DNA of 64,000 nt from the NCBI GenBank assembly GCA_964644845.1, contig CAZXXS010000097.1, forward strand, positions 153,838-217,837, read 5' to 3'. The notes below the pieces were generated by a model, which was given only the letters and a program-made list of their open reading frames with translations, made no database searches and was not told where the DNA came from. This DNA is from an uncultured Cytophagia bacterium (GTDB taxonomy: Bacteria > Zhuqueibacterota > Zhuqueibacteria > Oleimicrobiales > Geothermoviventaceae). Positions 1-30,343 of this stretch are shown here, one piece after another; position 1 is the stretch's first letter; every line of letters begins with the position of its first letter. Both the position numbers and the translations under genes were made by a program.

Positions 1-708
1 TTTTTTTCGGGCATTCGCCCAGGTAAGGCCATTCGTGGTGCGTTGTGGACGTGCGGAGCGGTCGGCCTGCGCCAAAGACGCGGTGGGCTTTTCACGGTTG
101 GTTGCAGAAATGGAGCGGCATGACGCTTTCGCTCCCGAAAAGCAGAGATCACAAGCGTGCGCGCGTACACAGATTTTGCAAGAGCGGGTAGATCGCTAGA
201 CACGCGTTAGGGAACGCGGTTGCCCCTCTCGGCATGCCACGTGAGGCTGCGCGGCTAAAAGGCTAAGAGCAGCGTAACGACGGGTTTTGTCACCTTTTAG
301 TCTTTGTCTGCCGTGCCGCGGGCATCAGGCTGTTTGGGCCCTACCCGAAGGGATTCGGAGTGAGAAGTTTCGCCTGAACCTGGATCCAAAAGGCCGAACC
401 GTTGGATGACCGAAGGGTAGGGGACTGACGATGGGGCACGACTGTTCACCTTTGACTACTTGCACGGAGTCGTTTGTTGTGGGGGTCAACCAACCAGGGT
501 AACGGTTGTGGCCCGTAGTGAGAGCGAAAAAGTACCGAAAGGCCGCTTTTGTTACGGGGCGCATTTTTTCCCGGATCTGTCCCGCGTCGGAGTTGCTTCC
601 GGTTTTGTTTGCGATCCGGGGTTTACCAGCCCAAAGCGCACAACGCCGGGTTCCCCTGTGCGAAGAACCCGGCGTTGCCTGCCGTCTTGGGAAGCGGACG
701 GTGTACGC

Positions 709-1185
709 CTAAGTGAAGATGATCTGGGCTCCTGCTGACACTTCGTAGAACTGCCCCACGGTGATGATGTCGTCCACCTCGTCGCAAAAATCCTCCCGTT
801 TCAGATGGAACATGTCCACTGTGGCTTTGCAGGCGTACAATTTTGCCCCGGCGTCGTGGATCATCTCGATGAATTCGTCCACCGGTGGGATGTCCAGCTT
901 TTCCATTTCCCGTTTCATCATGATCGTAGCAAGCGCGGACATCCCCGGCAGGATGCCGATCAAGCTGGGGATGTGCATGGCTGGATTGCCAACTGTTGCC
1001 ACTTTGAGTTTCTTCATGCGCTTTTTCACGATCGCGTCGAGGCCGAAAAAAGTGAAGAAAACGTTGGCCTCGATGCCTTCCATGCGTGCGCCGTTAGCCA
1101 TGATGAGTCCGGGGTAGACCCCCTCGAGCGACCCCTTTGAGATGATGATCGACACTTTCTTGATGCGGTCCTCGTTTGTAGGCAT
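709..1185 (-). CDS. DsrE/DsrF-like sulfur-relay family protein
   Basis: ORF 709..1221 translated. Sequence from MPTNEDRIKKVSIIISKGSLEGVYPGLIMANGARMEGIEANVFFTFFGLD resembles DsrE/DsrF/DsrH-like proteins. Start moved to the internal ATG at 1185, which follows a GGAGGAAACC RBS. Confidence 0.75.
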   Translation of the reverse strand: MPTNEDRIKKVSIIISKGSLEGVYPGLIMANGARMEGIEANVFFTFFGLDAIVKKRMKKLKVATVGNPAMHIPSLIGILPGMSALATIMMKREMEKLDIPPVDEFIEMIHDAGAKLYACKATVDMFHLKREDFCDEVDDIITVGQFYEVSAGAQIIFT

Positions 1186-1213
1186 GGCGGTTTCCTCCTT
1201 GAGGCAGGTGAAC

Positions 1214-1531
1214 TTACACACAACCTTGTGGCTTGGGTAGCCCTGCGATCTTAGCGGCTTTTTTCGCCGGACCGCCCGGAAAAAGGCGGTACAGCTCTTT
1301 TACAGGAACCCCGCCGGTATTCTTGAGGCGCCGGATGGATGGCGCGGTGCCTTTTTCCTGGTACTCCTTACGCATGAAATGGATCACCTTCCAGTGTGCC
1401 TCTGTCAGTTCTCCGATGCCTTCCTCTTTAGCGATGGCTTTGGCAAGTTCCTCGTCCCAGTCGGCCTGGTTTACCAGGTAACCTTCTTCGTCTACTTCTA
1501 CTTGCCTGCCGTTGAAGTCCTTAACTGGCAT
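1214..1531 (-). CDS. TusE/DsrC-family sulfur-transfer protein
   Basis: 105 aa ending ...GLPKPQGCV. The C-terminal Cys-Val tail with a second Cys upstream matches the DsrC/TusE family. GGAGGAAG RBS before the ATG. Confidence 0.8.
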   Translation of the reverse strand: MPVKDFNGRQVEVDEEGYLVNQADWDEELAKAIAKEEGIGELTEAHWKVIHFMRKEYQEKGTAPSIRRLKNTGGVPVKELYRLFPGGPAKKAAKIAGLPKPQGCV

Positions 1532-2249
1532 GGGTAACTTCCTCCGTGTTTGTCGTTCGCAGTGTTGAATCCGTTGTGGCTGCCGTTTCGTTGGCGACCA
1601 GGTTCTTCAGAAATTGGATGCCAAACGCGAGCCCCCGCCGCATTTCTGGAGTCCTGAACTCTTTGAAAAGGCGCCGGTACGAGATTTCCTCGTCCACGCT
1701 GATGGTGAGGTTCTTGTACACGGAAACGGCGTTGTTGATGGTTTCCAGCATGTCTGGCTGCGTGAGATTGCGGACGGTTGTTAGGATGGTAACGATGTTC
1801 TCACCCAAAAGCCGTACGTCTTCGACAGTGAAGGCGGTAACCACTTTGTCCAGCACTTTCGCGAGTTCGCTGAAAAAAGCGAAGTAGCCCTTCCGGTCAA
1901 GTTCGTCCAGTGTGGCCAGAAGATCGAAGAAGGCGTCCCGTGCGATTGGTTTCGCATCCTGCAGGAAGTCGTTGGCGCTTTCCAGCTGGTCCAAGGTGCG
2001 CGCGAGATTCCGCACATTACGAAGCAGCTTCTTGCCAAGGTGCCACAGATCAGACGCGTCGAAATGATGGGCTACCTCGTCAAGCTCAACTACAGCGGTT
2101 AGGAACATGTCTGTAACAACGCGGCTGAGGTCTTCCTTCAACTCCTGTGCTTCGCGTTCGCGCCTTCGTTGCAGAGCCAGCTGTTCGGTGACGAAGTCGA
2201 GCTTTCGGTTGATTTCTGCCAGCTGTTTCTCGAGACCGTTTCCACTCAT
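1521..2249 (-). CDS. DUF1641 domain protein
   Basis: 242-aa protein with the composition and pattern of DUF1641. It overlaps the downstream TusE start by 11 nt and the upstream SQR stop by 4 nt, so it sits in the operon. Confidence 0.6.
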   Translation of the reverse strand: MSGNGLEKQLAEINRKLDFVTEQLALQRRREREAQELKEDLSRVVTDMFLTAVVELDEVAHHFDASDLWHLGKKLLRNVRNLARTLDQLESANDFLQDAKPIARDAFFDLLATLDELDRKGYFAFFSELAKVLDKVVTAFTVEDVRLLGENIVTILTTVRNLTQPDMLETINNAVSVYKNLTISVDEEISYRRLFKEFRTPEMRRGLAFGIQFLKNLVANETAATTDSTLRTTNTEEVTHAS

Positions 2250-3481
2250 GCTACCCGCCTCTTTCCTGCCATGTTCATCTGCGCCTCGATCGGTAACTCT
2301 GCACCTTTGAGCAGCAGGTTCCAGTACATCCAGCGGAACATCATCTTGCCCCAGTGATTCATCTTTGTCTCCTCAAGAAGCGAGAAGGGACCGATTCCCG
2401 GTAGGGGAAACTTTCCCGGCAAAGGTTCGACATCGTAGTTGAAATCAATCAGAATGCCTTTCCCGAAACCGGACTCGATGAAACAGTTAGCATGCCCGTC
2501 GAACTTGGGCAGGAGCGGACGTTTGTCGATGGCTCGCAGAATGTTTTCGAACAGTACCTCGGACTCGAAATGGGCCACAGAACCCGCTTTCGAGCTGGGC
2601 AAGTCTGTGGCATCCCCGAGCACGAAAACGTTTTCGTAGTTCTTCGCCTGTAGGGTGTGCTTGTCGGTCGGGATGAAATTCAGCTCATCACCCATTCCCG
2701 AGCGCGCAATCACCTCGTCGCCCATGTTCGTCGGGATGGGTACGAGTAAATCGTATTCGATTTCTTGCTCGTCGTAGGAGATGATTTTCTGCTTGTCCGG
2801 ATCTACGCGTTCAACGTTGAAATCCGGTACCAGCCGGATGTTCTTTTTTTCAAGGAAGTTGCCCAAGAACTTCGACGCCAACGGTTTTGTGAAAGCGCCC
2901 GGGAGCGGCGTAACGAAAATGATCTCCACTTTGTCGCGAATGCCCTGTTCGGTGAACCACCAGTCGGCCAGAAACACGAATTCCAGGGGCGCCACTGGAC
3001 ACTTGATGGGCATTTCCACAATGTTCAACACCATTCGCCCGCCTTCCCAGTACTTTAGGAAATTGGCGAGACTTGTTGCCCCATCGATCGTGTAGAAGTC
3101 GAAGATGTTCTGTCTCCAGCCCCCTTCCAGCATCCCTGGTGTTTCCTCGGGGTGAATTTTGGAACCGGTGGAGATGATCAAATAGTCGTACTCCAACGTT
3201 TTGCCGTTCTCGAGCTTTACTCGACTTTTCTCTGGCTCGATGACTTCGATGCCGGACATTTCCACATTCACACCAGCGGGTAAAAAGTCACGCTTGGGCT
3301 TGATGACGTCGTTCCGGTTGTAAATGCCGAAGGGGATGAAGAGAAAGCCGGGCTGGTAGTAGTGGACCTCCTCTTGATCCACGATGGTAATGTCCCATTC
3401 GAGTGGATCAAGAACAGGCCTCAACTTATTGGCCATGATGGTGCCGCCAGTGCCAGCTCCGAGAATCAGAAGCTTCTTCAT
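2246..3481 (-). CDS. sqr: sulfide:quinone oxidoreductase-like FAD-dependent pyridine nucleotide-disulfide oxidoreductase
   Basis: 411 aa. N-terminal MKKLLILGAGTGG Rossmann motif, conserved cysteine context IKCPVAPLEF and C-terminal cap domain typical of the SQR/FCSD family. GAGGAGAG RBS. Confidence 0.75.
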   Translation of the reverse strand: MKKLLILGAGTGGTIMANKLRPVLDPLEWDITIVDQEEVHYYQPGFLFIPFGIYNRNDVIKPKRDFLPAGVNVEMSGIEVIEPEKSRVKLENGKTLEYDYLIISTGSKIHPEETPGMLEGGWRQNIFDFYTIDGATSLANFLKYWEGGRMVLNIVEMPIKCPVAPLEFVFLADWWFTEQGIRDKVEIIFVTPLPGAFTKPLASKFLGNFLEKKNIRLVPDFNVERVDPDKQKIISYDEQEIEYDLLVPIPTNMGDEVIARSGMGDELNFIPTDKHTLQAKNYENVFVLGDATDLPSSKAGSVAHFESEVLFENILRAIDKRPLLPKFDGHANCFIESGFGKGILIDFNYDVEPLPGKFPLPGIGPFSLLEETKMNHWGKMMFRWMYWNLLLKGAELPIEAQMNMAGKRRVA

Positions 3482-4143
3482 CGTTGTTTCTCTCCTCGTA
3501 ATTCTTTGTCCGACAAAATCTTGCGTTGTTTGTTCCTGGACCTCTCGCCCAGCACCGAAGTGACATCCCTATTGTGTCATGTCTTGTACGCCGAGCCGCC
3601 TGCCGAGCTGGGCGATCTAAAGCAAATGCTCTGCGTTCGCGCTCGGGCTCGCCTGGCTCAGGATGTTGCTGTTCTTGTGTTTGAGGCGTGCAGTCGGTTG
3701 CCACCGATTGAAGCCTTTCACGGGCGAGGCAATCTTGCTGTTCACCCGAACCCGAACGGGCAAAAGTTAGTAAATAGAAGCAACAATTGCAACTAAAATC
3801 AGATGCGCACAGCAATACTAACCAGTAGCACGTAGTGTTGTTGTTAAGAACCCACGAAAGAGAATGCGAGAATCGGAAGATGCCTGCTTTTCTGTTGACG
3901 TTTGTTGACGCCCGAGCGAAATGGCTCTCACTTGCGGGCTGGTGGCGTGGCCAGGTTAGGAGCCCCCTGAGGCCGCTATTTTTCCCGTGTGGATCCAGAG
4001 TTTGGCTAAGCAGGGTGAAAAAGGCTTTGTAGCAGCTCTATTTTTGAACTCGCCCTGGCAGCTTTGCGCCGGAAATGGCTCTGAACTTCACTTCCTGGGT
4101 CGTTTGGAGACTTCCCAAAATTCCCTCGGCTCTTTTCGTAGCC

Positions 4144-4212
4144 AAACCGCCTTCGGACGGCGGTTTTTTGACGTAACGCGGGGATTGGATCCCCGGGCGA
4201 AGGGGCGTCTCC
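4144..4212 (+). repeat. 69-nt direct repeat copy R1: intrinsic-terminator-like hairpin (AAACCGCC-ttcggac-GGCGGTTTTTT) plus second hairpin CGGGGAT-tgg-ATCCCCG
   Basis: Read directly from the sequence. About 91% identical to the copy at 4598..4666. Confidence 0.8.
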
Positions 4213-4450
4213 GATTCCCATTTAGCCGCAGAGAGAGGCATCTCCGAATCCCCATTCATCCCCGCATCTCCTTCACCGACTACGAGATCGTGCGGAGAAA
4301 ATCGCAAGGCGACCCAGGCATCGAACGCTGAGGGGTACGAGGTGACGCGACATTGCTGGCGGCGGTCTGGATTCGCGAGCGTTTTTTGGCGCAGCAGAAT
4401 GAGTGCGGCTGCTGTTTTGCGCGTCCATCTTCGCGGGCGCGCTTGGTACG

Positions 4451-4505
4451 CCGGGGACTGAAGTCCCCGGCTGCGTCAGGTGGAAACCGGCTGAAGCCGG
4501 TTTTG
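4451..4505 (+). repeat. related double-hairpin unit (CCGGGGA-ctgaag-TCCCCGG then AAACCGG-ctgaag-CCGGTTTT)
   Basis: Same two stem types as R1/R2 but in the opposite order. Both loops are CTGAAG. Confidence 0.7.
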
Positions 4506-4597
4506 CTTGGGGTGTACTTTGCAGCTCAGCGCGGAGGCCGTCTTCTGGTCGTGCGAGGTTTCGGTTCTCCCCGTGAGGTGATGCATTTGCCGCGGGG

Positions 4598-4666
4598 AAA
4601 CCGCCTTCAGGCGGCGGTTTTTTGACGTAGCCCGGGGACTGGATCCCCGGGCGAAGGGGTGTCTCC
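4598..4666 (+). repeat. 69-nt direct repeat copy R2 (terminator-like hairpin plus GGATCC-containing hairpin)
   Basis: Aligns to 4144..4212 with 6 mismatches in 69. Confidence 0.8.
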
Positions 4667-4929
4667 AAATGCGCATTTGTTCCCCCATCTCCTCTCAGTG
4701 CAGCCAAATTTCGGGGTCTACCGTGCCGGGATTCCGGGCGTGCGAAGAAGCGGTTTTCACGTAACGCTGGTTGTGTTTCTTCTGCGGCGGAATGAACTCC
4801 GCCGTTGGAGAACTTGTCGTGCTCTTCGGCGAATGTGTTTGCGAAAGTGGTACTCAGGCGGTGGTTTTTTGCCTGCCTGGTGGTAAGTGGTTCCCCTGGG
4901 CCCGGGCTGAAAGGCTGAGGCAGGTCGGT

Positions 4930-5415
4930 TTAGGAGGTTTCTCCAGAGTGTTTTTCGGCATGGTCGGCCAAATGTTCGTCGGACCACAGTTCCATGGCGT
5001 GGATGAGATCCTCGAACGTGTCGACCACGGTCCCCAGAGATGGATTTTGGAGCAAGGCGAGGATCTGGCGGTGCATTTCGTCGTACTCGCGCGTCATTTC
5101 GGCGGCCAGCTTCCGGCCCTTCGGGGTCAGGTTTACAATCTTGAACCGTCGGTCGTCCTCTGGTTCGTGGCGTTCAACGAGTCCTTTTTTGCGCAGGTCT
5201 TCCACAATGCGGGTCAGGCGTGCCGGACTAAGGTTCATGAGCTCCGCAAGGTGCCTGATGGGTGAATTGCCCTCCTTCCACAGCGTGCGAAGACACCGGA
5301 ACTCGGCGACACGCAGTCCGTAACGTGCCGCGAAGTGCACCTGTCGCTCCTGGCATAGTTCGTAAAGACGCAGAACGAGATCAGACATGCGGGAGGCGTA
5401 ATCCTCGGTCATCAA
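4930..5415 (-). CDS. MarR-family transcriptional regulator
   Basis: 161 aa with a winged-helix MarR pattern (…LTPKGRKLAAEMTREYDE…). GGAGGA RBS. Confidence 0.8.
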   Translation of the reverse strand: MMTEDYASRMSDLVLRLYELCQERQVHFAARYGLRVAEFRCLRTLWKEGNSPIRHLAELMNLSPARLTRIVEDLRKKGLVERHEPEDDRRFKIVNLTPKGRKLAAEMTREYDEMHRQILALLQNPSLGTVVDTFEDLIHAMELWSDEHLADHAEKHSGETS

Positions 5416-5735
5416 GATCCTCCAGTTTTGACAGAGGTGTGGGAACGAATCAACGTTTGGCTGCGATGGGACTGTCGAAACCCGCGGGACTGCACACTGG
5501 CTTCTTCAATCAGATTTCTCACAGAGAGGCTACACAGAGGCGCTGCCACAAATGCTGACAGCCGTCCGCCAGGACTGCTGCACCTGAGCTTCGGTGGCCC
5601 GTTTTGTCGGACTCGCCGGAAAACGCGTGGTTCATCCCAAACTTTTGGTCCGGAAATCACACCCCGAATCGGTTCTGTTGGCCTGCAAGATCAAACAACT
5701 TGCAGAAACCGTGTGCGTTCCGTCAGGCCGCAAAA

Positions 5736-8453
5736 CTACTCGGATTGCGTTTGCTTGACCAATTCCTCCAGAACGGCCCGCAGTTTCTCGAGTTGTTCGC
5801 CGTACCCAGCCCAGTCCCCGTTGCGCAATCGGCGCATCGCTTCCTCGTAGTGCTGCATGGCTTCGGCGGCGAGTTCGCCTGTGCCTTGCGGGCTAATGGT
5901 GCCACCTGCGGGCACTGTTCCCACCTCACGCGGACGCTCAGTGCTGACTTCCGTAGTGCCGATAGCATCCTGTAAGGCCAGATCCAGTGTTTCGCGCATC
6001 ACGATCCGATTCTTGTAGGCCACGATCACGCGTTTCAGTTCCGGGAGTTGCCCATTTTCAGCGCGCAGGTACACGGGTTCCACGTAAAGCAGGACGCTAT
6101 CCACTGGGATGGCCAGCAGGTTGCCACGGATCACCTGGGACCCGCGTTGGCTCCACAAGGTGAGCAACCTGGAAATGTCGGGGTCTTGGTCAATGCGGGC
6201 CTCGATCTGCCGTGGGCCATAAACCAGACGCTGCTTTGGCAACATGTAGGCGAACATCTGTCCGTAGTTGGGAGGATCGCAGCGGGCGGCAATCCAGGCA
6301 ATCATGTTGTCCTTTTCCTTGGGAGTAAATGGAAGCATGAGGATGTACTCGCCATCCGGTTCGCCTGGCAACTGCATCAGCACGTAGTAAGGCTCCATTG
6401 GCTGCTCCGAGCCGGCGTAGACCTCGCGTGGAATTTGCCACACATCCTCCCGGTTGTAAAAAGTCTGTGGGTCACGCATGTGGTAAGTGGCGTACATGCT
6501 CGTTTGCACGGAGAAAAGACCTACAGGGTACCGAAGATGTCTGCGGAAATCGTCCGGAAGCTCGCTCAGGGGTTTGAACAGCTTCGGGAAAATTGCTGCG
6601 TAGGCACGAATGATCGGATCTTTGGGATCGGCGATGTAGAATGTGACATCCCCGTTGTAGGCGTCGACCACCACTTTGACGCTGTTGCGGATGTAGTTGA
6701 ACCTGTTCTGGTAAGGCTCGGAGTAGGGAAAAGTGCTGCTGGTTGTGTAGGCGTCTTCGATCCAGAAGAGACGGCCGTCTACAATGACCACGTAGGGGTC
6801 GCCTTCGTACTGAAGAAATGGAGCGATCGTGCGGATTCGCTCCGAGACCGTGCGGTGGTACATGATGCGGCTGTCACTGGTAAGGTAGCTGGTCAAGATG
6901 AGCTTTGCGCTCCCGAATTCGTACGCGAATGCAAGACGTCGCAACAGCGAACCGATCCTGACACCGCCACTTCCGGAATAAGTTGTGAACTTGTTCCGTT
7001 CGCCAACAGGGTAGTCAAATTCCTCCGTTGCGGTTTTCACGAGAGCGTATTCGGTAGTCTCTTCGCCGTAGTAAATGGCGGGCTGATCGAGCTTGATGTC
7101 GACGTTGATCACAGGCGGGATGTCTTTGATGAAGAAATAGGGCAACCCTTCCTCGGTAACCAGGTTCACAGGGTTCATCACAACGCCGTAACCGTGTGTG
7201 TATTTGAGGTGCAGGTTCACCCACGTTCTCGCCTGGGTGGGGATCTGGTCGTAGTTCAGCTCGCGGGCTGAGAGCATCACCTGGCGGTAGTCGTCTCCGA
7301 AGGTGTAGCGATCCACGTCCACGTCGTGAAAGTCGTAGTAAAGGCGAATTTCCTGTAGCTGGCTGTAAGTGGCGTGAAGTGGCCGCCAGTCCCACAGCCG
7401 CATGTTTCGCACCGTGGAGCGGTAGTTCAAAAGGTCGTTGTAGGTAATTGAGCCACTTGGGTCAAACCCTTTTTCTTCAACGGACTCGAGCCCGTAAGCT
7501 AAACGAGTCAGGCGAATGTTGTGGGCGATGTAGGGTTTTTCTTTTTCCAGCTCATTGGGTTCGACGACCAGTTTCTGGACAAGGCTCGGATAAATGCCTA
7601 CGGCGAGAACCAGCATGAGTACAAAAAGAGCGGTACCCGCTACCACAATTTTCCACCCACGTCTGGTGATGGCCAAGAGGATTCCCACAACGATCACCAG
7701 CGTGGCGATGACCATGATCCAGTAGGCTGGGAGCTTGGCGTGGATGTCGGCGTAACCCGCGCCGAACACGGCTCCGGTGCGTGAGTAGAGGAGCTGAAAA
7801 CGCTCCAACCAAAAACGTCCCGCGAGCACCAAGAGGGTCAACGCGGCTAAGATGGAAAGGTGAGCTTTTGCGATGGCCCGCAGTTCCCTGAGGCGACTCA
7901 AGAAACTGCCCCCGAGGAAGTAGATTACAGCGGAAAGCCCGAACGCGAGGATGAAGAGCCACATGAGCCAGGTTGTTCCCAGCACGTACACAGGTAGCGA
8001 GAACACGTAGAAGGCGATGTCTTTCCCGAACACTGGATCCGTGGCGCCAAACGGTTGACGCTTGAAGAAAGCCAAAATTTGCAGCCACCGCGTGGAGATG
8101 GCACCGGCGAAAATCAAACCGACGAAAAGCGCCGCCAGGGCTACAAGGGTTTTTTGCAGTTTGATGAGTTTCGGAATGGAGATGCTGACGTCATCCAGAG
8201 TGAGAACAATCCGCTGAGGAGCTGCCTTCAGGGCGAACCAACCGTTCAGGTAGAGAAAAAGGCTCGAGACGAAAAATCCCCCCAGGAAAAAAGCCCATTT
8301 TGCGGTCAGCGATTTCGTGTAGACGCTGAGGTACCCCAGTTTGGAAAACCAAATGGCATTGATGTACAGCCCTACACCGCTTCGCAGGAAGATCAAAATG
8401 CCCGCGATCGCTGCCGCAACAATCAGGCTTATTTTTTGACGGCGGTTCATGGC
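5736..8453 (-). CDS. UPF0182-family large membrane protein
   Basis: ORF 5736..8534. Start set at MNRRQKISLIV after a GGAGATACG RBS. About 7 N-terminal TM helices then a large soluble region, the characteristic UPF0182 architecture. Confidence 0.7.
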   Translation of the reverse strand, partial: AMNRRQKISLIVAAAIAGILIFLRSGVGLYINAIWFSKLGYLSVYTKSLTAKWAFFLGGFFVSSLFLYLNGWFALKAAPQRIVLTLDDVSISIPKLIKLQKTLVALAALFVGLIFAGAISTRWLQILAFFKRQPFGATDPVFGKDIAFYVFSLPVYVLGTTWLMWLFILAFGLSAVIYFLGGSFLSRLRELRAIAKAHLSILAALTLLVLAGRFWLERFQLLYSRTGAVFGAGYADIHAKLPAYWIMVIATLVIVVGILLAITRRGWKIVVAGTALFVLMLVLAVGIYPSLVQKLVVEPNELEKEKPYIAHNIRLTRLAYGLESVEEKGFDPSGSITYNDLLNYRSTVRNMRLWDWRPLHATYSQLQEIRLYYDFHDVDVDRYTFGDDYRQVMLSARELNYDQIPTQARTWVNLHLKYTHGYGVVMNPVNLVTEEGLPYFFIKDIPPVINVDIKLDQPAIYYGEETTEYALVKTATEEFDYPVGERNKFTTYSGSGGVRIGSLLRRLAFAYEFGSAKLILTSYLTSDSRIMYHRTVSERIRTIAPFLQYEGDPYVVIVDGRLFWIEDAYTTSSTFPYSEPYQNRFNYIRNSVKVVVDAYNGDVTFYIADPKDPIIRAYAAIFPKLFKPLSELPDDFRRHLRYPVGLFSVQTSMYATYHMRDPQTFYNREDVWQIPREVYAGSEQPMEPYYVLMQLPGEPDGEYILMLPFTPKEKDNMIAWIAARCDPPNYGQMFAYMLPKQRLVYGPRQIEARIDQDPDISRLLTLWSQRGSQVIRGNLLAIPVDSVLLYVEPVYLRAENGQLPELKRVIVAYKNRIVMRETLDLALQDAIGTTEVSTERPREVGTVPAGGTISPQGTGELAAEAMQHYEEAMRRLRNGDWAGYGEQLEKLRAVLEELVKQTQSE

Positions 8454-9562
8454 GTATCTCCTTGGCTCAGGGATTCCTGAGAAACCACTGCTTGTTGGCC
8501 TGAAAAATCGCGACTCTTGGGGAAGCCAGTGCACGAACTTGTTTGCTCAAGTGAAGGTACGGTAGAATGTTGAACGGAGCAAGGGCAAATTTTGCGTGTG
8601 CTAAACAATGCTCAGCTGAAATGTACTTGAGGGTGTGAGACGGTTTCAGGGACGCACTCTCCGTTTGGAGCGGTTGCAAGAACCCGTTTTTGCCTACGTG
8701 GTGGACGTCAAACGGAAAGGAGAGCTTGCGTCGGCTGACCGTTGCGCTTGGACGTTGGAACTGCGGTGGCAGTCGCTACGACCGATTTAGCGCATCAGAA
8801 AGAGACTGCAGCAGGCTGGAGGAGAGTGAACACAAAATTGGCCACGTCGTTCCCGGCGAGTCCCATTCAAACAGTGCTCATTCCCTGAATCTGGGGTGTG
8901 AACCCTGGGGAAAGCGGCAGGACCTCGACACTGATTGCGCGCGCTTCCGGCAGCGAACACCTCTCCACGCACGTGAGTGCTTTGCTACGGTACGAACGTG
9001 CGTAGGTAAGAGTCCCCTGTGGGGTCACGGTTTCGGGAAGTCGGGGAAAGGTGCTACTTGCCTCAGAGTCCACGAAGAAACGGCTACGTGGTGCACAGCT
9101 GGTGGCAGCTACTTTCAAGCGGCAGGGACTGTCCAAGCCCGAGGTCCCAAATTCCGGACGTTGTAAGTAAAGTGCACTGCCCAAGGTTGTTCCCAGTGAC
9201 AGGGTGTAGTAGCCTCAGAATGTAAGCAGGCGTTGTGGAGGGGTGGACGGAGTGGCGCGCCCGGATACCAGGGATCTCCCCATTTTTGCCTGTGAACTCG
9301 CCGACACCTCGGAGCGGCTTGGTTCCTGCTGGTAAAATTGGTTCCAGGACAGGAGCTGAAAGAGCGTTCTGTGTTTCCGGCGGGGCCTTCCGGTTCACGG
9401 GCGCTCTGCAGGCAGTCCGGGACTTCCAGCTCCCCCTGCTTGCAGGGGTAAGCCTGACCGTGCGGGCAAGGTCCGACTTCTGGGCACAGCGAAAGCTCAA
9501 CAGCAACCGTTACCTGCCGTGCCCCCAACGTGTTTGCGGGGAGACCCTCGCCCAGATACAGC

Positions 9563-12135: not shown

Positions 12136-12873
12136 GTGGCTCAGCTCGAGGTCGTGCTTGTGCCGGGGGAGATTCGGCCCCGAGAATTGCGGGGACGTTT
12201 TGTCGTGGTGATCGATGTGCTGCGGGCCGGGACTTCGGTGGCTGTTGCGCTGGCCAACGGAGCACGCAAAGTGATCCCTGTGGCTGGCGTGCGGTCTGCC
12301 AGACAAAAAGCCGCGGCTTTGGGGCGCAGCAACGTGCTTCTCTGCGGGGAACGCAGCGGCGTTCGTTTGCCAGGTTTTGACCTTGGGAATTCGCCCCGCG
12401 AGTACACCCCGGAGCGAGTGGCCGGCCGTAACCTGGTGTTCACGAGTTCGAACGCCACCCGCGCTCTTGCGCGGACGCGTGAGGCCAAAGAGGTGGTTCT
12501 TGCTGGCCTTGTGAACGTCAGTCGCGTTGCGCAGAGCGCAGCTTCTTCTGATCTCGAAATTACGCTTGTTTGCGCTGGGCGGCTTGGGCGATTTGGCTTG
12601 GAGGATTTCTTGGCCGCGGGGCTCCTGGTAAAGGCCATCCGGCAAATACTGGCCTTGACCGACGATGACCTTGACGATGCCAGCAGAATGGCAGCGAACT
12701 TTGCCGCAGAGCAGCGGGAAGACCCGCTGGGGGTGCTTGCCGCTTCAACGCACGGCCGCTACTTGTGTTCGATTGGCTTTGAGGCTGATCTCCCCCTGTG
12801 TGCGGCTCTGAACACGGTCGACGTAGTCCCCACTTTCAACGGCGAAGCTCTTGTGCCAGGTCCTCGGGGGTGA
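12136..12873 (+). CDS. 2-phosphosulfolactate phosphatase (ComB) family protein
   Basis: 245 aa. VVVIDVLRAGTS motif typical of the ComB family. GTG start. Confidence 0.6.
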   Translation: MAQLEVVLVPGEIRPRELRGRFVVVIDVLRAGTSVAVALANGARKVIPVAGVRSARQKAAALGRSNVLLCGERSGVRLPGFDLGNSPREYTPERVAGRNLVFTSSNATRALARTREAKEVVLAGLVNVSRVAQSAASSDLEITLVCAGRLGRFGLEDFLAAGLLVKAIRQILALTDDDLDDASRMAANFAAEQREDPLGVLAASTHGRYLCSIGFEADLPLCAALNTVDVVPTFNGEALVPGPRG

Positions 12874-12977: not shown

Positions 12978-13640
12978 GTGTCCAAACGGCGATTTGATCC
13001 GCGTGAAATTGATTGGTCCTTGTACGCAATCCTCGACCGTGAATTCATCGGCAACCGATCCTTCGGTCAGATCGCCGAGGCGGTGATCCAAGGGGGTGCT
13101 GGGATCGTTCAGTTGCGTGATAAAGTTTCTGGAAGCAGAGATTTCTACCTCGAGGCGCTTCAGGTCCGCGAGGTTACGCGAAACTTCGGGGTGCCTTTCG
13201 TCGTGAACGACCGTGTGGACGTGGCGCTTGCCGTCGACGCGGACGGTGTGCACGTGGGCTGGAGCGATTTGCCGCCGGAGGTCGTGCGTAGGCTGATTGG
13301 AAGTGAGCGACTGCTTGGACTGTCGGCGAGTTCCGAGGAGGAAGTAGACAAAGCGGTTTCGTACTCACCCGATTACCTGGGGGTCGGAGCCATGTTTGCG
13401 ACGGCCACAAAGCCCGACTACCCCGTTCCCGGCCCAGGTCTAATTGCGAAGGTGAGATCCAGGGTTGCTTGCCCGATTGTGGGGATTGGTGGAATCACGC
13501 CGGAAAACGCAGCCGCAGTTGTAGCAGCTGGGGCCGACGGAGTGGCGGTCATTTCGGCTCTGCTGAGCGCGCAGGACGTTAGAGAGCAGGCTAACCGCTT
13601 TGTTGAGGCCATCCGCCAGGTGAGAAAGGCTGAGAAGTAG
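12978..13640 (+). CDS. thiE: thiamine-phosphate synthase
   Basis: 220 aa. LYAILDR…VQLRDK…IGGI motifs typical of ThiE. GTG start. Confidence 0.8.
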   Translation: MSKRRFDPREIDWSLYAILDREFIGNRSFGQIAEAVIQGGAGIVQLRDKVSGSRDFYLEALQVREVTRNFGVPFVVNDRVDVALAVDADGVHVGWSDLPPEVVRRLIGSERLLGLSASSEEEVDKAVSYSPDYLGVGAMFATATKPDYPVPGPGLIAKVRSRVACPIVGIGGITPENAAAVVAAGADGVAVISALLSAQDVREQANRFVEAIRQVRKAEK

Positions 13641-24160: not shown

Positions 24161-27100
24161 TTGCGCCCTCCACGTCGCGGCGCTCAGGCTGTATTGAGCG
24201 CTGTTTTTCTCTCAGTGTGTCTGGTCATCGCGTGGCAGTCACCTGTGCGGGCTGCGGAAGGGAGTCGTGTGTTTTTTCGACGCCCTCCCCTTCTTGATCC
24301 CCTTAGGGCACCCCTTCTTGACACTCAGTACCACGGCATCCCGATCGATTCCCTCCACATTCAGCCGATGCCAGCGTCCATCCGGGCCCTCCGGATGACG
24401 ACGTCCGTGGACTCCACGCATCAGTTTGTCACAATCAAGTACAGCATTGGCCGCGACCAGATTTTCTACCCGCTGAAGATGCGCGTGGAGGATTTTCGGC
24501 GTCTACGTGGACAGCAGGAGCTGGCCAAACTGTGGCGGACCACGCTCTTGAAACCTCCCGAAGAGCTACTGCGCCGCCGGCGCCGGAGACAGCAGGGCGT
24601 GCGAATTGACCTGCCGGTTGAAATCCGGAGCAAAACGTTCCAAACGCTGTTTGGTGGCTCCAAGGTCGGTTTGAGCGTTACCGGGGACATCACGATTGAC
24701 GGCGGTTTCCGGCACGAGAAGCGCAGCGAAGTGAAAACCGCGCTCACGCAGGGCTCCGATTACAACTTCAAGATGGAGCAAAAGCAGCGTTTCGGAGTTG
24801 AAGGGCACATCGGCGAGAAGGTCAAGGTGCGCGTCGATCAGGACTCGGAACGCCCGTTTGATTTCGAGAACACCATCCGTTTGCAGTATCAGGGTTTCGA
24901 GGACGAAATCATCACGTCGATCGAGGCTGGGAACATCTCGTTGTCCCTACCGGCAACCCGGTTCGTGACTTTCAGCGGCCGGAACTCCGGATTGTTCGGC
25001 ATCAAGTCACAGATGGCGCTCGGCAACCTGAAAATCACCACCATCGCCAGCCAGGAGAAAGGCGAAAGCAAACGGATGAGCCTCTCCGGTGGAGCCCAGG
25101 AGAACACCCAGAAGATTGAGGATTACCAGTACAGGAGAGGGGCCTATTTCTTCCTGGATCGCTTGTACCGCGAACAATTCCGCCACTACGACGAAAACGG
25201 CTTGCACATCTACAATCCCAACTTTGCCATCACGCGCATTGAGTTGTACAAGTCGGAAGCTGGCTACGACACGCGCTACTCGGACTCGATTCGCGGGTGG
25301 GCTGTCATCGACGAGACGCCGGACAGTTTGAGGAGCTTCGATGCCGACACGACCCACGGCGTGGACCAGAATCACTATTTTGGTTACTTTCGCCGGATGG
25401 AAAAAACGGAGTACTTCGTGGATCGCGATCTCGGCTACATTCAGCTGAACATGCCTGTACGGGATGGCGAGGTGCTGGCAGTCGCTTTTGAGACCCGGAA
25501 CGGTCGAAAAGTTGGGGACATCGATTTCAATCCCGATTCCTCGAACACGATCGTCCTGCGACTGCTCAAGTCCATGAAGCCAACCCCCAAGGACAGTACC
25601 TGGGACCTGGAATGGAAAAACGTTTACTACCTCGGCGCCAGCAACATTCAGAAAGAGGGATTCGAACTCAAGATCTACTACAAGCCGCCGTCCGGCGATC
25701 CTCAAGAGACACAGCAGGTAGACGGAAAAGCGAAGACGTACCTGGAGATTTTCGGGCTTGACCGTTACGATCAGAATGGTGCGCCTCATCCCGACGGTGT
25801 AATCGATTTCGACCCCAACATCATCAACTTGGCCCGCGGTGAACTGATTTTCCCGGATTTGCAGCCTTTCGATCCCATCGGGATCTACATTGGTGACAAA
25901 CTGGTGAAACCGGAACTGAGTGCTGACAAATTCAGTCCCGTGCTTTACGACACCACGAGTCAGACGGCCATCACAGCGGCCAGCAAGTTCTACATCGAAG
26001 TCAAATCGAAGAACAAGAGCGCCAACTACCAGCTTGGTTTCAACATCATCGAGGGGTCCGAGGTTGTTACCCTGAACGGGCGCCAGCTGCAGCGCGGAAC
26101 CGATTACGTCATCGATTACTACACTGGCAACCTCACGATTCTGAACGAAGAGGCAACGTTGCCGACCGCGGACGTCCAGATTTCGTACGAGAGTAATCAG
26201 ATGTTTCAGCTGGAAAAAAAGACGTTGATTGGTACACGCGCTCAGTACGACTTCGGGCAGGATCGATTCATTGGCGGTACCTTGTTGTACATGAATCAGA
26301 GCACCATTGAGCGCAAAATCCGCGTTGGGCAGGGCCCGATGCGCAATCTCATCTGGGACATCAACGGGAAGCTCGGTTTCAGGCCCAACTTCCTTACAAA
26401 GGCGGTGAATTTCCTGCCTTTCGTCGAAACGCAAGCACCCTCCAAGCTGAACATCGAGGGTGAAATTGCACAGGTGCTGCCGAATCCCAACACCAGCAAC
26501 AACAAAGACACCGGCGATCCAAGCGGCGTTGCGTACATCGACGACTTCGAGGGTTCAAAGCGCACGATCGGTTTGAGCATCATGCGGCGCGCCTGGACCC
26601 TCGGGTCGCCACCCGCCAAGTACTACCAAGCAGGCGATCCGCTAACCACATTGCGGATGGGGCATGTGGTCTGGTACAACCCGTGGGAGCAAGTTCCCAT
26701 CAAGGAGATTTGGCCGAATCGGGATGTGAACCCGAACGTGCCCCAACGTGTCCATGTCCTGTCGATCGAGTTTACCCCGGCAGACAGTTCCCACTTGCCG
26801 CAAGATTCGCCTTACTACTTCCCGGCCGACAGTTCGTGGGGTTCCATCATGCAGGCGCTGTCCGCCGGGTACCACGATCAGACAGAAAGCAAGTTCCTCG
26901 AAATCCTCGTGCAAGGCAATGAGGGAATCCTGCACATTGACTTGGGCCAGATCTCCGAAGACGTTATTCCGAACGGAAAGCTGGACACAGAGGACAAGGC
27001 GCCGCCTGGCGGATTCCGAAATGGACTGTTGGACGAAGGGGAAGACGTCGGGCTTGACGGCATGAAGGCCAAAGATCCTAACGACTTCTGGGACATCAAC

Positions 27101-30100
27101 GGAAACGGTGTGCGAGATCCGGGCGAACCGATCAGTTGGGACGACTGGAATTACCAAAGTGGTAGCTACGTTTACGATCAGATCGACGGTACTGAGAACA
27201 ACGCGAACGACGAAGGCGGGCGCCGACCCGACACAGAAGACATCAACGGTAACGGCGCTGTGGACCTGGCTAACAATTACTTCGAGTACACCATCAATCT
27301 GGACAAGACCAGCCCCGACACGGCTTACATTTCTGGCGGCAACCCGGACGCACCTGGAGGTGGATGGTGGCAGTACCGGATTCCGTTGGACGACCTGACG
27401 CACCGCAAGGACATCGGCAACCCGGACTTCACACGGATCGAATCAATTCGGCTGTGGTTTGAGGGGTTTAAAGGCCCGAGTCGCATTCGCATCGCTGAGC
27501 TGAACCTGGTTGGCAACGACTGGAAGGAAAAAGGCGTGGCGCCGCCGAACGATCCCGAAAACTACGACGCCAACGACGACAGCACTGTGGCGGTGACGGT
27601 TGTAAACACGCACGACAACCCTGAATACAAGCCGCCAAAAGGTGTGGCTGGTGAAATCGATCCGGTGACCCGCGTGCAGGCCAAAGAGCAGTCGTTGGTA
27701 CTGAAGATCACGAATCTTCAGCCGGGTTACAGTGGGTTGGTGCAAAAAACCTTCTTCAGCCCGCAGAATTACATTCACTACGAAAAGATGAAGATGTACG
27801 TGTACGGGCGGGATCCCTTCGGTGTGCACATCCGACCAGACACCAGCTACATCGAGTTTTTCTTCCGGTTTGGCTCCGACTTGAACAACTACTACGAGAT
27901 CCGCGAGCGGGTTTACCCCGGCTGGGACGACCGTAACGAAATCGTCATTGACCTCCTGGACTTGACGGCGACGAAGCTGGACTCTTCGTTCTACGATTCC
28001 TCGGGTGTTTTCATCAAGCGGCTTTCCAACGGCAAGGAGTACCGGATCAAGGGGCGGCCGTCCTTGACCAACGTGCGAATGCTGGCCGCGGGCGTGCGGA
28101 ACCTGATGGGTGCAACGCTGGACACCACTGGCGTAACGACGCCGATTCCCTTCACTGGCGAAATCTGGATGAACGAGCTCCGTTTGAGTTACGTCAAGAA
28201 GGAGCGGGGCAAGGCCATGCGTGCCCGGGTAGATTTCGGTCTTGCCGACGTACTCAACGTGAATGCGGAGATTAACCGTCAGGACGCCGATTTCCACGAC
28301 ATCAAAACACGATTCGGCCGGGGCGACAATCGGCTTTCGACGAATTTCAACGCCAGTTTGTCCCTGGACAAGCTGCTTCCCGCCTGGCTCGGATTTTCGA
28401 TCCCGGTGAGTTACAAATTTGGCCGGTCAGAAGCGACACCAAAATACAAACCGGGTACGGACATCGAAGTTAGAAAGGATCGAATCCCGCCGGAGATCCT
28501 GGAAACCATTCAATCGCGCCAGAAGCAATCTGGCTTCAGCGTGTCGATCCGGCGAAGTACAAAATCGAAAAATTGGATTCTGGCCAACACGATCGACCGG
28601 ATTTCCGGGAGCTACAGCGAAACGCGGAGCGAAGGAAGTAATTCGACCACGAAGAGCTCGACCAACTTTTCCCAATCCGGGAGATTTGGGTACAATCTGA
28701 GCTTCGGTCGGGGTAAGTTTTTCCAGCCGTTTGCCTGGATTCGCAAAGTTCCGGTGCTCGGCGTCCTTGGCGAAACCAAGCTTTACTACACACCGCGTAC
28801 GTTTTCGGTTCAGGCTTCGGTAACCCGGTCCCGGCGGAGTTCGTTGACACGAACCGGCGCTTTAACGGGGAGCGAAACGTTCAACGTGCAGCGCCAGATT
28901 CGAGCTGGTTACAACCTCTTTGAAACGTTGGGATTTGACTTCAGCCGTAGTTACGTCTCCGACATGCGCGGGCGCCCAATGAGCGACCTCTGGAAGCGAA
29001 AATTCGGCCAAACGACAGGGATCAATCAGAACTTCAGCGTCAAGTACAACCCGAAGATTTTTGCGTGGCTGACCAACAATTTCTCGTACACAGCGGGGTA
29101 CAAATACAACGTCAACCTCCAGCAAAGGGCAACCGGCCGGAGTGCCGCTAACAATGCTAATCTCTCGGCGCAGGTCACGCTGGATCCGGCCCGGCTGTGG
29201 AGTTCCATCTTTCGTACCGGAACAACGGCGAGACGGCGTCCGGGGGCGCGAGCCGTTCGTGGCCGGAGACCTCCAGGCTCCCGAAGGGCACCGCCGGGGT
29301 CCCGGCGAAAACCCGGTACAAAGGACAAGAAGAAACAAGAGGAGAAGAAGTCTGGTTCGCCATTTCACGTGTTCGGCCTGTTCGGCAAGGTGTTCGAGAT
29401 GATCGATCCCATTCAGTTTAGCATCCAGCAGCGAACAGGTAACAACTACTACGGTTTGCAAAGCACGCAGATGCCGACGACGGCCTTCCAGTTTGGTCTC
29501 GACGACAGCACAGGCGTACCAGTACTGCAAAATGTAGGCACAAACCGTGGTTCTCAAAATTTCAACAAGGCGATTTCGATCCAGACGGGCATTTCGCCCA
29601 TGCGCAGCATGAGCATTGATTTCCGCTACAATCGTTCTGAGCAACGCAACAACACGACAACCACGACCGGCGGCTACAACGAAACGTACTTACGACTTGG
29701 CAATCTTGACATGGCTTTCCCGAACTGGACGCTCCGGTGGTCCGGATTGAGCCGCGTCAAACTGTTCAAGAAGTACGTACAGCAGGTAACCCTGGACCAT
29801 TCCTTCAGTGGCCAGCGAAATGAGACCTGGAACCTGACGCCCGAGGGGGAAAAGAACATCACCAAGCTTGACTTCCAGTCTGGGTTTCGGCCACTGATCG
29901 GCTTAAACGCTCGTTTGAAGAATGGTGTAACCGTAAACTTGCGGTACAACATGAGTGAAAACCTGAGCCAGAGCATGACCGGCGGTCTCGGATCCACGAA
30001 GCAGGTGAGTCGGGATCTGAATTTCACGGCCACGTACTCCAAACGCTCGGGGTTTCGCCTGCCTTTCTGGAAGAACAAAGAACTGCGCAACAGCATTGAT

Positions 30101-30343
30101 TTTTCGCTCAGTTTCATCTACGGCAGCAACGTTACGTACAAGAGTCGCGGTACCGAGGGGCGTTTCCAGCCGACTGCGGAAACGTCCAAGTGGACTCTGG
30201 AACCCAAGGTGACGTACTCATTCAGCACCCAGGTACGCGGTGGCGCGCATTTGCAGATTGGCCACACGAAGAATTCCTTGATGGGCGAAACCAAGATCCA
30301 AGAGCTGGGGATCAACGTCCAAATCTCCATTCGCGGCAGTTGA
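24161..30343 (+). CDS. sprA: giant (about 2060 aa) secreted outer-membrane protein, SprA/Sov-like T9SS translocon candidate
   Basis: Uninterrupted 6.2-kb ORF. N-terminal signal peptide (AVFLSVCLVIAWQSPVRAAE). Asn/Tyr/Gly/Thr-rich beta-rich composition throughout. Size and context (cyclase immediately downstream, T9SS cargo nearby) fit SprA. Family assignment is by recollection, not by a search. Confidence 0.55.
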   Translation: MRPPRRGAQAVLSAVFLSVCLVIAWQSPVRAAEGSRVFFRRPPLLDPLRAPLLDTQYHGIPIDSLHIQPMPASIRALRMTTSVDSTHQFVTIKYSIGRDQIFYPLKMRVEDFRRLRGQQELAKLWRTTLLKPPEELLRRRRRRQQGVRIDLPVEIRSKTFQTLFGGSKVGLSVTGDITIDGGFRHEKRSEVKTALTQGSDYNFKMEQKQRFGVEGHIGEKVKVRVDQDSERPFDFENTIRLQYQGFEDEIITSIEAGNISLSLPATRFVTFSGRNSGLFGIKSQMALGNLKITTIASQEKGESKRMSLSGGAQENTQKIEDYQYRRGAYFFLDRLYREQFRHYDENGLHIYNPNFAITRIELYKSEAGYDTRYSDSIRGWAVIDETPDSLRSFDADTTHGVDQNHYFGYFRRMEKTEYFVDRDLGYIQLNMPVRDGEVLAVAFETRNGRKVGDIDFNPDSSNTIVLRLLKSMKPTPKDSTWDLEWKNVYYLGASNIQKEGFELKIYYKPPSGDPQETQQVDGKAKTYLEIFGLDRYDQNGAPHPDGVIDFDPNIINLARGELIFPDLQPFDPIGIYIGDKLVKPELSADKFSPVLYDTTSQTAITAASKFYIEVKSKNKSANYQLGFNIIEGSEVVTLNGRQLQRGTDYVIDYYTGNLTILNEEATLPTADVQISYESNQMFQLEKKTLIGTRAQYDFGQDRFIGGTLLYMNQSTIERKIRVGQGPMRNLIWDINGKLGFRPNFLTKAVNFLPFVETQAPSKLNIEGEIAQVLPNPNTSNNKDTGDPSGVAYIDDFEGSKRTIGLSIMRRAWTLGSPPAKYYQAGDPLTTLRMGHVVWYNPWEQVPIKEIWPNRDVNPNVPQRVHVLSIEFTPADSSHLPQDSPYYFPADSSWGSIMQALSAGYHDQTESKFLEILVQGNEGILHIDLGQISEDVIPNGKLDTEDKAPPGGFRNGLLDEGEDVGLDGMKAKDPNDFWDINGNGVRDPGEPISWDDWNYQSGSYVYDQIDGTENNANDEGGRRPDTEDINGNGAVDLANNYFEYTINLDKTSPDTAYISGGNPDAPGGGWWQYRIPLDDLTHRKDIGNPDFTRIESIRLWFEGFKGPSRIRIAELNLVGNDWKEKGVAPPNDPENYDANDDSTVAVTVVNTHDNPEYKPPKGVAGEIDPVTRVQAKEQSLVLKITNLQPGYSGLVQKTFFSPQNYIHYEKMKMYVYGRDPFGVHIRPDTSYIEFFFRFGSDLNNYYEIRERVYPGWDDRNEIVIDLLDLTATKLDSSFYDSSGVFIKRLSNGKEYRIKGRPSLTNVRMLAAGVRNLMGATLDTTGVTTPIPFTGEIWMNELRLSYVKKERGKAMRARVDFGLADVLNVNAEINRQDADFHDIKTRFGRGDNRLSTNFNASLSLDKLLPAWLGFSIPVSYKFGRSEATPKYKPGTDIEVRKDRIPPEILETIQSRQKQSGFSVSIRRSTKSKNWILANTIDRISGSYSETRSEGSNSTTKSSTNFSQSGRFGYNLSFGRGKFFQPFAWIRKVPVLGVLGETKLYYTPRTFSVQASVTRSRRSSLTRTGALTGSETFNVQRQIRAGYNLFETLGFDFSRSYVSDMRGRPMSDLWKRKFGQTTGINQNFSVKYNPKIFAWLTNNFSYTAGYKYNVNLQQRATGRSAANNANLSAQVTLDPARLWSSIFRTGTTARRRPGARAVRGRRPPGSRRAPPGSRRKPGTKDKKKQEEKKSGSPFHVFGLFGKVFEMIDPIQFSIQQRTGNNYYGLQSTQMPTTAFQFGLDDSTGVPVLQNVGTNRGSQNFNKAISIQTGISPMRSMSIDFRYNRSEQRNNTTTTTGGYNETYLRLGNLDMAFPNWTLRWSGLSRVKLFKKYVQQVTLDHSFSGQRNETWNLTPEGEKNITKLDFQSGFRPLIGLNARLKNGVTVNLRYNMSENLSQSMTGGLGSTKQVSRDLNFTATYSKRSGFRLPFWKNKELRNSIDFSLSFIYGSNVTYKSRGTEGRFQPTAETSKWTLEPKVTYSFSTQVRGGAHLQIGHTKNSLMGETKIQELGINVQISIRGS

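Follow-up and report, generated by a model that had tools for sequence, protein, structure and literature searches.

In the methanotroph Methylacidiphilum fumariolicum SolV, a type III sulfide quinone reductase (SQR) is encoded in one operon with the small sulfur proteins TusA and DsrE2 (MFUM_v2_0219-0221). This SQR-TusA-DsrE2 operon is upregulated 1.7-fold in sulfide-adapted cells and was proposed by its authors to be a sulfide-detoxifying route (PMC10205796). Here, we describe a four-gene cluster located on the minus strand of a stretch of DNA of 64,000 nucleotides (nt) from an uncultured Cytophagia bacterium (contig CAZXXS010000097.1, positions 153,838 to 217,837; this whole stretch is hereafter called the window). 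The cluster comprises the genes for: (i) a flavoprotein that its sequence assigns to the type III SQRs; (ii) a DUF1641 protein of the helical membrane plugin (HMP) family; (iii) a TusE/DsrC-family protein; and (iv) a DsrE2-like protein. Judged from their sequences, these four genes probably constitute one operon for a sulfide-oxidising unit.

The Methylacidiphilum operon, set against the cluster of the window by its published description, is the closest published parallel, since in both cases a type III SQR is accompanied by a DsrE2-type protein and a second small sulfur carrier. Nevertheless, the second carrier is TusA in the former and a TusE/DsrC-family protein in the latter, and no DUF1641/HMP gene is reported in Methylacidiphilum. 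The hosts also differ, as Methylacidiphilum is an aerobic acidophilic methanotroph of the Verrucomicrobiota.

Three HMP proteins, namely ForE, HucM and YjlC/Ncp, serve the ForCE formate dehydrogenase, the Huc hydrogenase and the Bacillus subtilis Ndh, respectively. In the solved structures, these proteins form helical tubes on which soluble oxidoreductases are mounted and through which quinone travels between the enzyme and the membrane (PMC10017518, PMC8808070, PMC13524794, PMC13433803). According to a 2026 Nature Communications paper, most HMP genes adjoin SQR genes and SQR is probably the ancestral partner of the family (PMC13433803); the SQR-DUF1641 pairing had, therefore, already been recognised from genomics (2025-2026). 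The cluster of the window shares with the ForE, HucM and YjlC/Ncp systems a small helical DUF1641 protein which is encoded beside, and in the same direction as, a soluble or peripheral quinone reductase. But while this cluster also encodes candidate sulfur-relay proteins, the operons of the solved HMP systems have none.

Sulfur relays that resemble the second half of the cluster are known from two pathways. In the 2-thiouridine pathway of Escherichia coli, sulfur goes from TusBCD to TusE. In the sulfur oxidation of Allochromatium vinosum, it goes from DsrEFH to DsrC (PMC3397948). Both relays combine, as the cluster does, a DsrE-fold protein with an active-site cysteine and a TusE/DsrC-fold partner with a penultimate cysteine on its C-terminal arm. 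The differences are that (i) TusBCD and DsrEFH are heterohexamers built from three different subunits, whereas the window has a single DsrE2-like gene; (ii) the source of sulfur is TusA, IscS or rhodanese in those relays and would be SQR in the cluster; and (iii) neither DsrAB nor MnmA is among the genes profiled in the neighbourhood of the cluster.

A further parallel is provided by the CstR-controlled cstA-cstB-sqr operon (cst) of Staphylococcus aureus, in which CstA has TusA-like and DsrE-like domains. In this operon, SQR is likewise found with dedicated persulfide-handling proteins, together with a thiol-based persulfide-sensing repressor, so that relays of persulfide from SQR to proteins do exist. 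In contrast to the cluster of the window, the S. aureus system has a type II SQR, a sensor of the CsoR family, the persulfide dioxygenase-rhodanese CstB to dispose of the sulfur, and no known HMP protein. Besides, the cst proteins are not known to be orthologous to the small proteins of the window.

Literature searches for DUF1641 with sulfide and DsrE found no paper, and those for type III SQR with TusA and DsrE found the Methylacidiphilum paper alone. The Caldithrix genome paper mentions neither DsrE nor DsrC, and its sulfur-related passages are silent on the cluster (PMC5317091). Each part of the cluster has a published relative; the combination of type III SQR, HMP, TusE-type and DsrE2-type proteins, usually with a cysteine-rich MerR regulator, appears to be undescribed. 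An initial annotation of the window, made from its sequence, had called this arrangement "not a textbook operon": this seems to hold for the four-gene combination, but the association of a type III SQR with sulfur carriers had already been published (PMC10205796).

Organisation and conservation of the operon

The operon is read on the minus strand in the following order: SQR (2246-3481; 411 amino acids, aa), the DUF1641/HMP protein (1521-2249; 242 aa), the TusE/DsrC/DsvC-family protein (1214-1531; 105 aa) and the DsrE2-like protein (709-1185; 158 aa from its ATG). The ATG of the SQR gene is preceded by a Shine-Dalgarno-like GAGGAG, and its stop codon overlaps the start codon of the DUF1641 gene by 4 nt (ATGA, read from the sequence GCATGAGT). 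The DUF1641 and DsrC-like genes overlap by 11 nt, with a GGAGG upstream of the second ATG, while a gap of 28 nt separates the DsrC-like and DsrE-like genes, with AAGGAGG 7 nt ahead of the DsrE-like ATG. These coordinates and junctions agree with those given in the initial annotation for the four minus-strand genes. The DsrE-like gene has an alternative GTG start at 1221, which would yield a protein of 170 aa; the ATG is preferred because its homologues have 155-158 aa and the gene call is also of 158 aa.

About 30 nt past the stop codon of the dsrE2-like gene, a GC-rich hairpin with a perfect 17-bp stem can be found (640-678, minus strand), followed by a weak U tract (GCGCUUUGGG). The fold of positions 625-700 on this strand (76 nt) has a free energy of -44.2 kcal/mol (z = -4.6 versus shuffled sequences). 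This hairpin is a possible operon terminator or RNA-stabilising element, as far as its sequence and position suggest. It is absent from the list of a consensus terminator scan. The scan of positions 1-5800 for promoters and terminators gave counts no higher than those of shuffled sequences, and it returned no sigma-70-like promoter upstream of the operon on the minus strand, where the consensus may differ from the promoters of the FCB group.

The conservation of the operon was studied by scanning one genome per species, through which 337 loci that encode relatives of the flavoprotein were obtained; the best 80 were kept. They come from Calditrichota, KSB1, Marinimicrobia/Fidelibacterota, Bacteroidota, Chlorobiota and other groups. 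At every one of these 80 loci whose contig reaches far enough, the four genes have identical order and orientation, an arrangement that lies far past chance expectation. The conserved neighbourhood that the initial annotation had proposed to look for in related genomes does, thus, exist across the 80 best related loci. The SQR-HMP junction is the tightest: its median gap is 1 nt, and in 78 of 79 loci the gap does not exceed 30 nt. The median gaps are 14 nt between the HMP and DsrC-like genes and 30 nt between the DsrC-like and DsrE-like genes; these are looser than the SQR-HMP junction and, at some loci, reach 635 and 530 nt, respectively. The source genome is placed in the Calditrichota. The closest database proteins to those of the window are 98-100% identical and come from metagenome-assembled genomes, and orthologues of SQR or of the DsrE2-like protein are present in the cultured Caldithrix abyssi and Melioribacter roseus (MROS_1022).

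At one locus of a Calditrichota relative (L021:3069-5904), four co-directional open reading frames (ORFs) were seen by eye ahead of SQR: one for an NrfD-like membrane protein, two for halves of a YeeE/YedE-like sulfur transporter and one rhodanese-like. The window lacks such a wider set of sulfur genes.

The four encoded proteins

The flavoprotein matches the NCBIfam model NF049943, "type III sulfide quinone reductase, selenoprotein subtype", with 671.8 bits (cut-off 525), and Pfam Pyr_redox_2 with 58.6 bits. Its closest solved structure is human SQOR (E 3e-47), to whose catalytic Cys201 and Cys379 motifs the stretches PIKCPVAP and HANCFIES of the flavoprotein are aligned. The corresponding residues, Cys161 and Cys333, are the sole two cysteines of the protein, and all 81 family sequences have both. 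The FAD-binding Rossmann motif ILGAGTGGT lies at the N-terminus (residues 5-13); upon reading the sequence, no second, NAD(P)H-binding GxGxxG motif was found around residues 150-165 (NIVEMPIKCPVAP). The SQR-like identity and the SQR-type cysteine positions put forward in the initial annotation are both borne out by these data. Two other families, which the initial annotation had named as outcomes that would refute SQR, were considered and rejected: a CoA-disulfide reductase, whose model gives only 26 bits versus a cut-off of 579, and NDH-2, of which there is no model among the profile matches; in both cases, the catalytic cysteines fit SQR.

Despite the name of the NCBIfam model, the protein is the cysteine form of the enzyme, because its ORF is intact, it has no in-frame TGA and both active-site positions are cysteines. 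In fact, none of the cysteine positions of the SQR or carrier genes is occupied by an in-frame TGA, and the SQR genes of the 80 related loci (0/80) have none either. The match to TIGR03169, the SelD-linked oxidoreductase family, is weak (50 bits versus a cut-off of 310). SQR is 72-98% identical across phyla and its C-terminal 60 residues are almost invariant, a conservation which, judged from the alignment, exceeds that needed for a simple amphipathic membrane anchor.

The second protein has a marginal match to Pfam DUF1641 (PF07849) in its C-terminal part (residues 189-217; 22.5 bits versus a cut-off of 21). Most of its homologues have a precomputed PF07849 match and are named "DUF1641 domain-containing" or "helical membrane plugin domain-containing" in public annotation. 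A profile of the family, built from 31 members, matches ForE1/YjgD (8rqz) with an E-value of 5.6e-8 over profile positions 96-226 (131 positions), so that the homology to ForE1 reaches beyond the 39-residue DUF1641 motif; the match of the same profile to YjlC (9snk_B) is weak (E 0.05). The protein shares with ForE1 the C-terminal motif L-K/R-x-P-E...F..FLK and differs from ForE and YjlC in having some 95 extra N-terminal residues, predicted to form long helices. It has no cysteines. An HMP scaffold is expected to be a tetrameric helical tube that docks its enzyme and has a hydrophobic lumen filled with lipid and quinone. For the protein of the window, the AlphaFold2 monomer, from an alignment of 35 sequences, is all-helical and of low confidence (predicted local distance difference test, pLDDT, 61; predicted template modelling score, pTM, 0.26), and a Foldseek search of this model against the PDB returned long-helix noise only (best E = 1). 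By analogy with its relatives, the DUF1641 protein is probably a quinone-channel scaffold for SQR. The initial annotation was right to pair it with SQR, but described it as a mere companion, while its family consists of quinone-channelling scaffolds (PMC13433803, PMC13524794).

The third protein belongs to the TusE/DsrC family, with 138 bits to Pfam DsrC and 114 bits to TIGR03342 (cut-off 53.5). Its closest structures are true DsrC proteins, aligned from end to end (2xsj_C, E 4e-29); the match to 7syb, a chain deposited as "Sulfurtransferase", is weaker (E 1e-9). Bona fide DsrC has two cysteines in its C-terminal arm: the penultimate CysA and, ten residues upstream, CysB. All 78 sequences have the penultimate cysteine, Cys104, while the CysB position is occupied by alanine in the window (C-terminus ...AKIAGLPKPQGCV, versus the 2xsj_C arm ...CKMAGLPKPTGCV), and no second conserved cysteine is present in the arm among the 78 sequences. 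A bona fide DsrC, that is, a partner of DsrAB, is ruled out by the absence of CysB. The score to the TusE equivalog NF008562 also lies below its cut-off (92.6 versus 191 bits), and a weak match to LexA_DNA_bind (E 0.003) is under the cut-off. In consequence, of the double name "DsrC/TusE-like" of the initial annotation, the family stands (Pfam DsrC, TIGR03342) and a true DsrC does not, for want of the second cysteine. From its sequence, the third gene is best named a single-cysteine TusE/DsrC-family carrier, and its product would be the terminal persulfide carrier.

The fourth protein matches Pfam DrsE_2 (PF13686) with 114.9 bits and lies below the cut-off of the NCBIfam DsrE2 equivalog NF047629 (111.3 versus 210 bits). 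Its closest structure is 2qs7 (E 4.5e-19), a DsrE2B from Sulfolobus (PMC4175335). The two hallmarks of DsrE2A, in turn, are a pair of strictly conserved cysteines and two transmembrane helices (PMC4175335, PMC12998232). In the protein of the window, Cys119 (YACK) is aligned with the 2qs7 cysteine in FACS and is kept in all 74 sequences; a second cysteine, Cys134, occurs in 39 of the 74. Relative to 2qs7, the residues around 63-85 are extra and form a conserved hydrophobic insertion. Residues 72-90 make up one hydrophobic stretch of 19 residues with a central Pro-Gly (Kyte-Doolittle hydropathy 1.71), the sole segment with transmembrane-like hydropathy in all four proteins. The AlphaFold2 model has a pLDDT of 60, and below 50 in the hydrophobic insertion, the alignments being too shallow or too similar. 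The profiles thus agree with the DsrE-family and TusE/DsrC-family identities suggested at the outset, and the single invariant cysteine of each of the two proteins lies at the position known to carry sulfur. By analogy with known relays, the DsrE2-like protein may be the first persulfide acceptor. [quoted passage not shown]

Regulators, spacer and neighbouring genes

A gene for a MarR-family regulator (4930-5415, minus strand; 161 aa; Pfam MarR, PF01047, 50.7 bits) lies upstream of the operon and in the same direction. In the comparison with the best 80 relatives, MarR is found upstream of SQR solely in the window and in two loci, L001 and L002; in L002, 59 nt separate the end of MarR from the start of SQR. 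MarR is, then, outside the conserved module. The more common neighbour of the operon, brought out by clustering the flanking ORFs, is a gene for a cysteine-rich MerR-family protein, present in 54 of the 80 loci. In 52 of these it lies directly upstream of SQR and is co-directional with it, whereas in the other two (L022, L024) it follows closely after dsrE. This MerR protein has about 157 aa (for instance, L079:5531-6004, L033:5531-5998 and L048:5531-6001) and eight near-invariant cysteines attributed to its C-terminal half (reference positions 85, 99, 109, 119, 124, 127 and 136, plus 61). Pfam detects only its helix-turn-helix; to judge from its sequence, the cysteine-rich domain is a candidate for binding a metal or an Fe-S cluster, or for sensing polysulfide. 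No match to the MerR homologue of the relatives was obtained anywhere in the window.

As MarR holds the position of MerR in the window, L001 and L002, one regulator seems to have taken the place of another, and MarR can reasonably be regarded as a candidate for controlling the operon here. Two cysteines of MarR, Cys21 and Cys41, are conserved in all three available sequences. From its position, this MarR probably controls the operon in this lineage, as the cysteine-rich MerR probably does in most relatives. No conserved operator for MarR was found. The suggestion of the initial annotation that MarR could act as a persulfide sensor goes further and is a guess: it leans on two cysteines conserved in three sequences, and 54 of the 80 relatives have MerR instead of MarR.

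The MarR gene and the operon are separated by a non-coding spacer of 1,448 nt (3482-4929; no strand assigned), which had been called a "hairpin-repeat island". It contains two direct repeats of 69 nt (4144-4212 and 4598-4666), 91% identical and with two hairpins each: a terminator-like hairpin (AAACCGCC...GGCGGTTTTTT) and a CCGGGGA...TCCCCGG hairpin. Partial copies lie at 4446-4471, 4754-4770 and 4854-4871, and the motifs occur nowhere else in the window. Neither Rfam, run on the whole window at gathering thresholds, nor a tRNA scan returned any match, so the island is not a known RNA family. The island is real, but local: the spacer is unconserved in L001, whose SQR is 98% identical, and the same interval in L002 spans 59 nt. 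L081, a second assembly from the source organism, breaks within the spacer. On these sequence grounds, the spacer is regarded as fast-evolving repeat DNA inserted between the regulator and the operon.

Regarding the remaining neighbourhood, ten of the larger ORFs between approximately 5.7 and 23.3 kb were profiled and turned out to be housekeeping genes (UPF0182, aminotransferase, GcvT, ThiE, FtsK, LolA and others). Directly upstream of MarR and on the same strand, a UPF0182 membrane protein of 932 aa is encoded (5736-8534, minus; Pfam 1011 bits), a family whose function is not known. On the plus strand, a gene for a 2-phosphosulfolactate phosphatase of the ComB type and a gene for the thiamine-phosphate synthase ThiE lie side by side (12136-12873 and 12978-13640), and a very long ORF encodes 2,060 aa (24161-30343). 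Some 7 kb outside the window, past its left edge, the second assembly (L081:10990-13191) has a gene for a protein of 733 aa with aminotransferase domains of the cysteine-desulfurase type (Aminotran_5) and AIRS/AIRS_C domains, which resembles a NifS-like/SelD-like fusion. The sequence of this fusion suggests selenium use in the source organism.

Proposed mechanism and alternatives

The reading that we consider rather probable is that the operon oxidises sulfide, with the electrons going via the HMP scaffold to the quinone pool and the sulfur to the two carriers. By analogy with characterised SQRs, and with the family and catalytic residues described above, sulfide would attack the Cys161/Cys333 centre of SQR, two electrons would pass to FAD and a sulfane sulfur would be left on a cysteine. 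The HMP protein, whose translational coupling would keep it stoichiometric with SQR, would be a helical scaffold on which SQR docks and gains access to the membrane quinone; such an SQR-HMP complex is proposed by analogy with the solved HMP systems, and the homology and strict adjacency observed here are consistent with it. The sulfane sulfur would then not be freed as polysulfide but taken by Cys119 of the DsrE2-like protein, which would pass it to the TusE/DsrC-like protein, at Cys104 on the flexible C-terminal arm. Both this transfer and its order are drawn from the known TusBCD-TusE and DsrEFH-DsrC routes, to which the conserved cysteines correspond; the order DsrE then TusE/DsrC put forward in the initial annotation agrees with these two routes. 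Finally, the sulfur could end on a low-molecular-weight thiol, in an export route or in a biosynthetic pathway. The net role would be sulfide detoxification plus an electron feed to the quinone pool.

Several points weigh against this reading. Genes of downstream sulfur oxidation (Dsr, sHdr, Sox, PDO) are missing from the surroundings of the operon, as far as the ten profiled ORFs of the window go. The evidence on the proteins of this clade is sequence-based throughout: the Pfam score of the DUF1641 protein is marginal (22.5 versus 21), and the AlphaFold2 models of the HMP and DsrE2-like proteins, being of low confidence, lend no structural support. The sole close family member that has been assayed biochemically, the M. 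cuprina DsrE2B, is inert in vitro. Besides, sulfide:quinone electron transfer is reported for other type III SQRs (PMC10205796, which cites Lencina et al., 2013, and Han and Perner, 2016); if those enzymes work without an HMP partner, the scaffold may be dispensable.

It is unlikely, albeit conceivable, that SQR and HMP already form the complete enzyme and that the small proteins are not its sulfur acceptors, acting instead in regulation, in active-site protection or in biosynthetic supply, such as tRNA thiolation, from another sulfur source. Such roles would agree with the inertness of DsrE2B in vitro (PMC4175335), with the looser gaps ahead of the small genes as compared to the SQR-HMP junction, and with the helix-turn-helix-like motif of the DsrC family, to which the weak LexA_DNA_bind match of the DsrC-like protein (E 0.003) can be added. 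Nevertheless, the carrier cysteines are invariant (78/78 and 74/74) and, therefore, sulfur chemistry is favoured over a purely regulatory role. The small genes are, moreover, kept with SQR at every sufficiently long locus, and an unrelated phylum also has a type III SQR linked with TusA and DsrE2 (PMC10205796).

The same proteins might also work in the reductive direction: the carriers would collect sulfur from persulfide or polysulfide, and the flavoprotein would reduce it to H2S with quinol supplied via HMP, thereby aiding fermentative growth with elemental sulfur (S0). Carriers could indeed deliver sulfur to an enzyme as well as receive it, and Caldithrix abyssi, which has SQR and DsrE2-like orthologues, reduces S0 and thiosulfate to sulfide in peptide fermentation with enzymes that, in the sulfur-related passages of its genome paper, are not firmly assigned (PMC5317091). 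But quinol is a poor reductant for this purpose (menaquinone ~ -75 mV versus S0/HS- ~ -270 mV, textbook values), the characterised members of the SQR family are all oxidative, and the closest published operon is induced by sulfide and not by sulfur (PMC10205796), which together make this direction quite improbable. Far more remote is the idea that selenium is handled instead of, or besides, sulfur, with selenide being oxidised and the carriers moving selenium for selenoprotein or selenouridine synthesis. The "selenoprotein subtype" in the name of the best NCBIfam model, the weak TIGR03169 match and the cysteine-desulfurase-like/SelD-like fusion about 7 kb downstream of the operon on the source contig all point that way. 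However, the TIGR03169 score is far under its cut-off (50 versus 310 bits), the SelD-like gene is on the opposite strand and behind three unrelated genes, SQR has no in-frame TGA at 80 loci and the carriers are free of any selenium sign.

Returning to sulfide oxidation with transfer of sulfur to the carriers, a bolder and rather doubtful version of it is that the four proteins build one particle. In this arrangement, SQRs would dock on the quinone-carrying HMP tube, while the DsrE2-like protein, through its Pro-Gly hairpin, would sit at the lipid-filled scaffold or at the sulfur exit of SQR and load the arm of the TusE-like protein. If this were true, electrons and sulfane sulfur would both be channelled and never released, the HMP protein would be the first scaffold of its family to organise both a quinone channel and the relay of a substrate, and the missing sulfur donor would have been found for the DsrE2 family, inert in all assays to date.

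Of all SQRs, those of type III are the least understood, and DsrE2-type proteins are without a demonstrated substrate. The operon ties an SQR to two candidate acceptors and to a candidate quinone-channel scaffold, with near-invariant active-site residues. It is, hence, a compact system that bears on three questions: (i) SQR-HMP complexes; (ii) the sulfur acceptor of type III SQRs; and (iii) the function of DsrE2. The operon is found in lineages that are abundant in sediments and oxygen-minimum zones (Calditrichota, KSB1, Marinimicrobia/Fidelibacterota and Ignavibacteriota), and the finding bears on how these groups tolerate or use sulfide.

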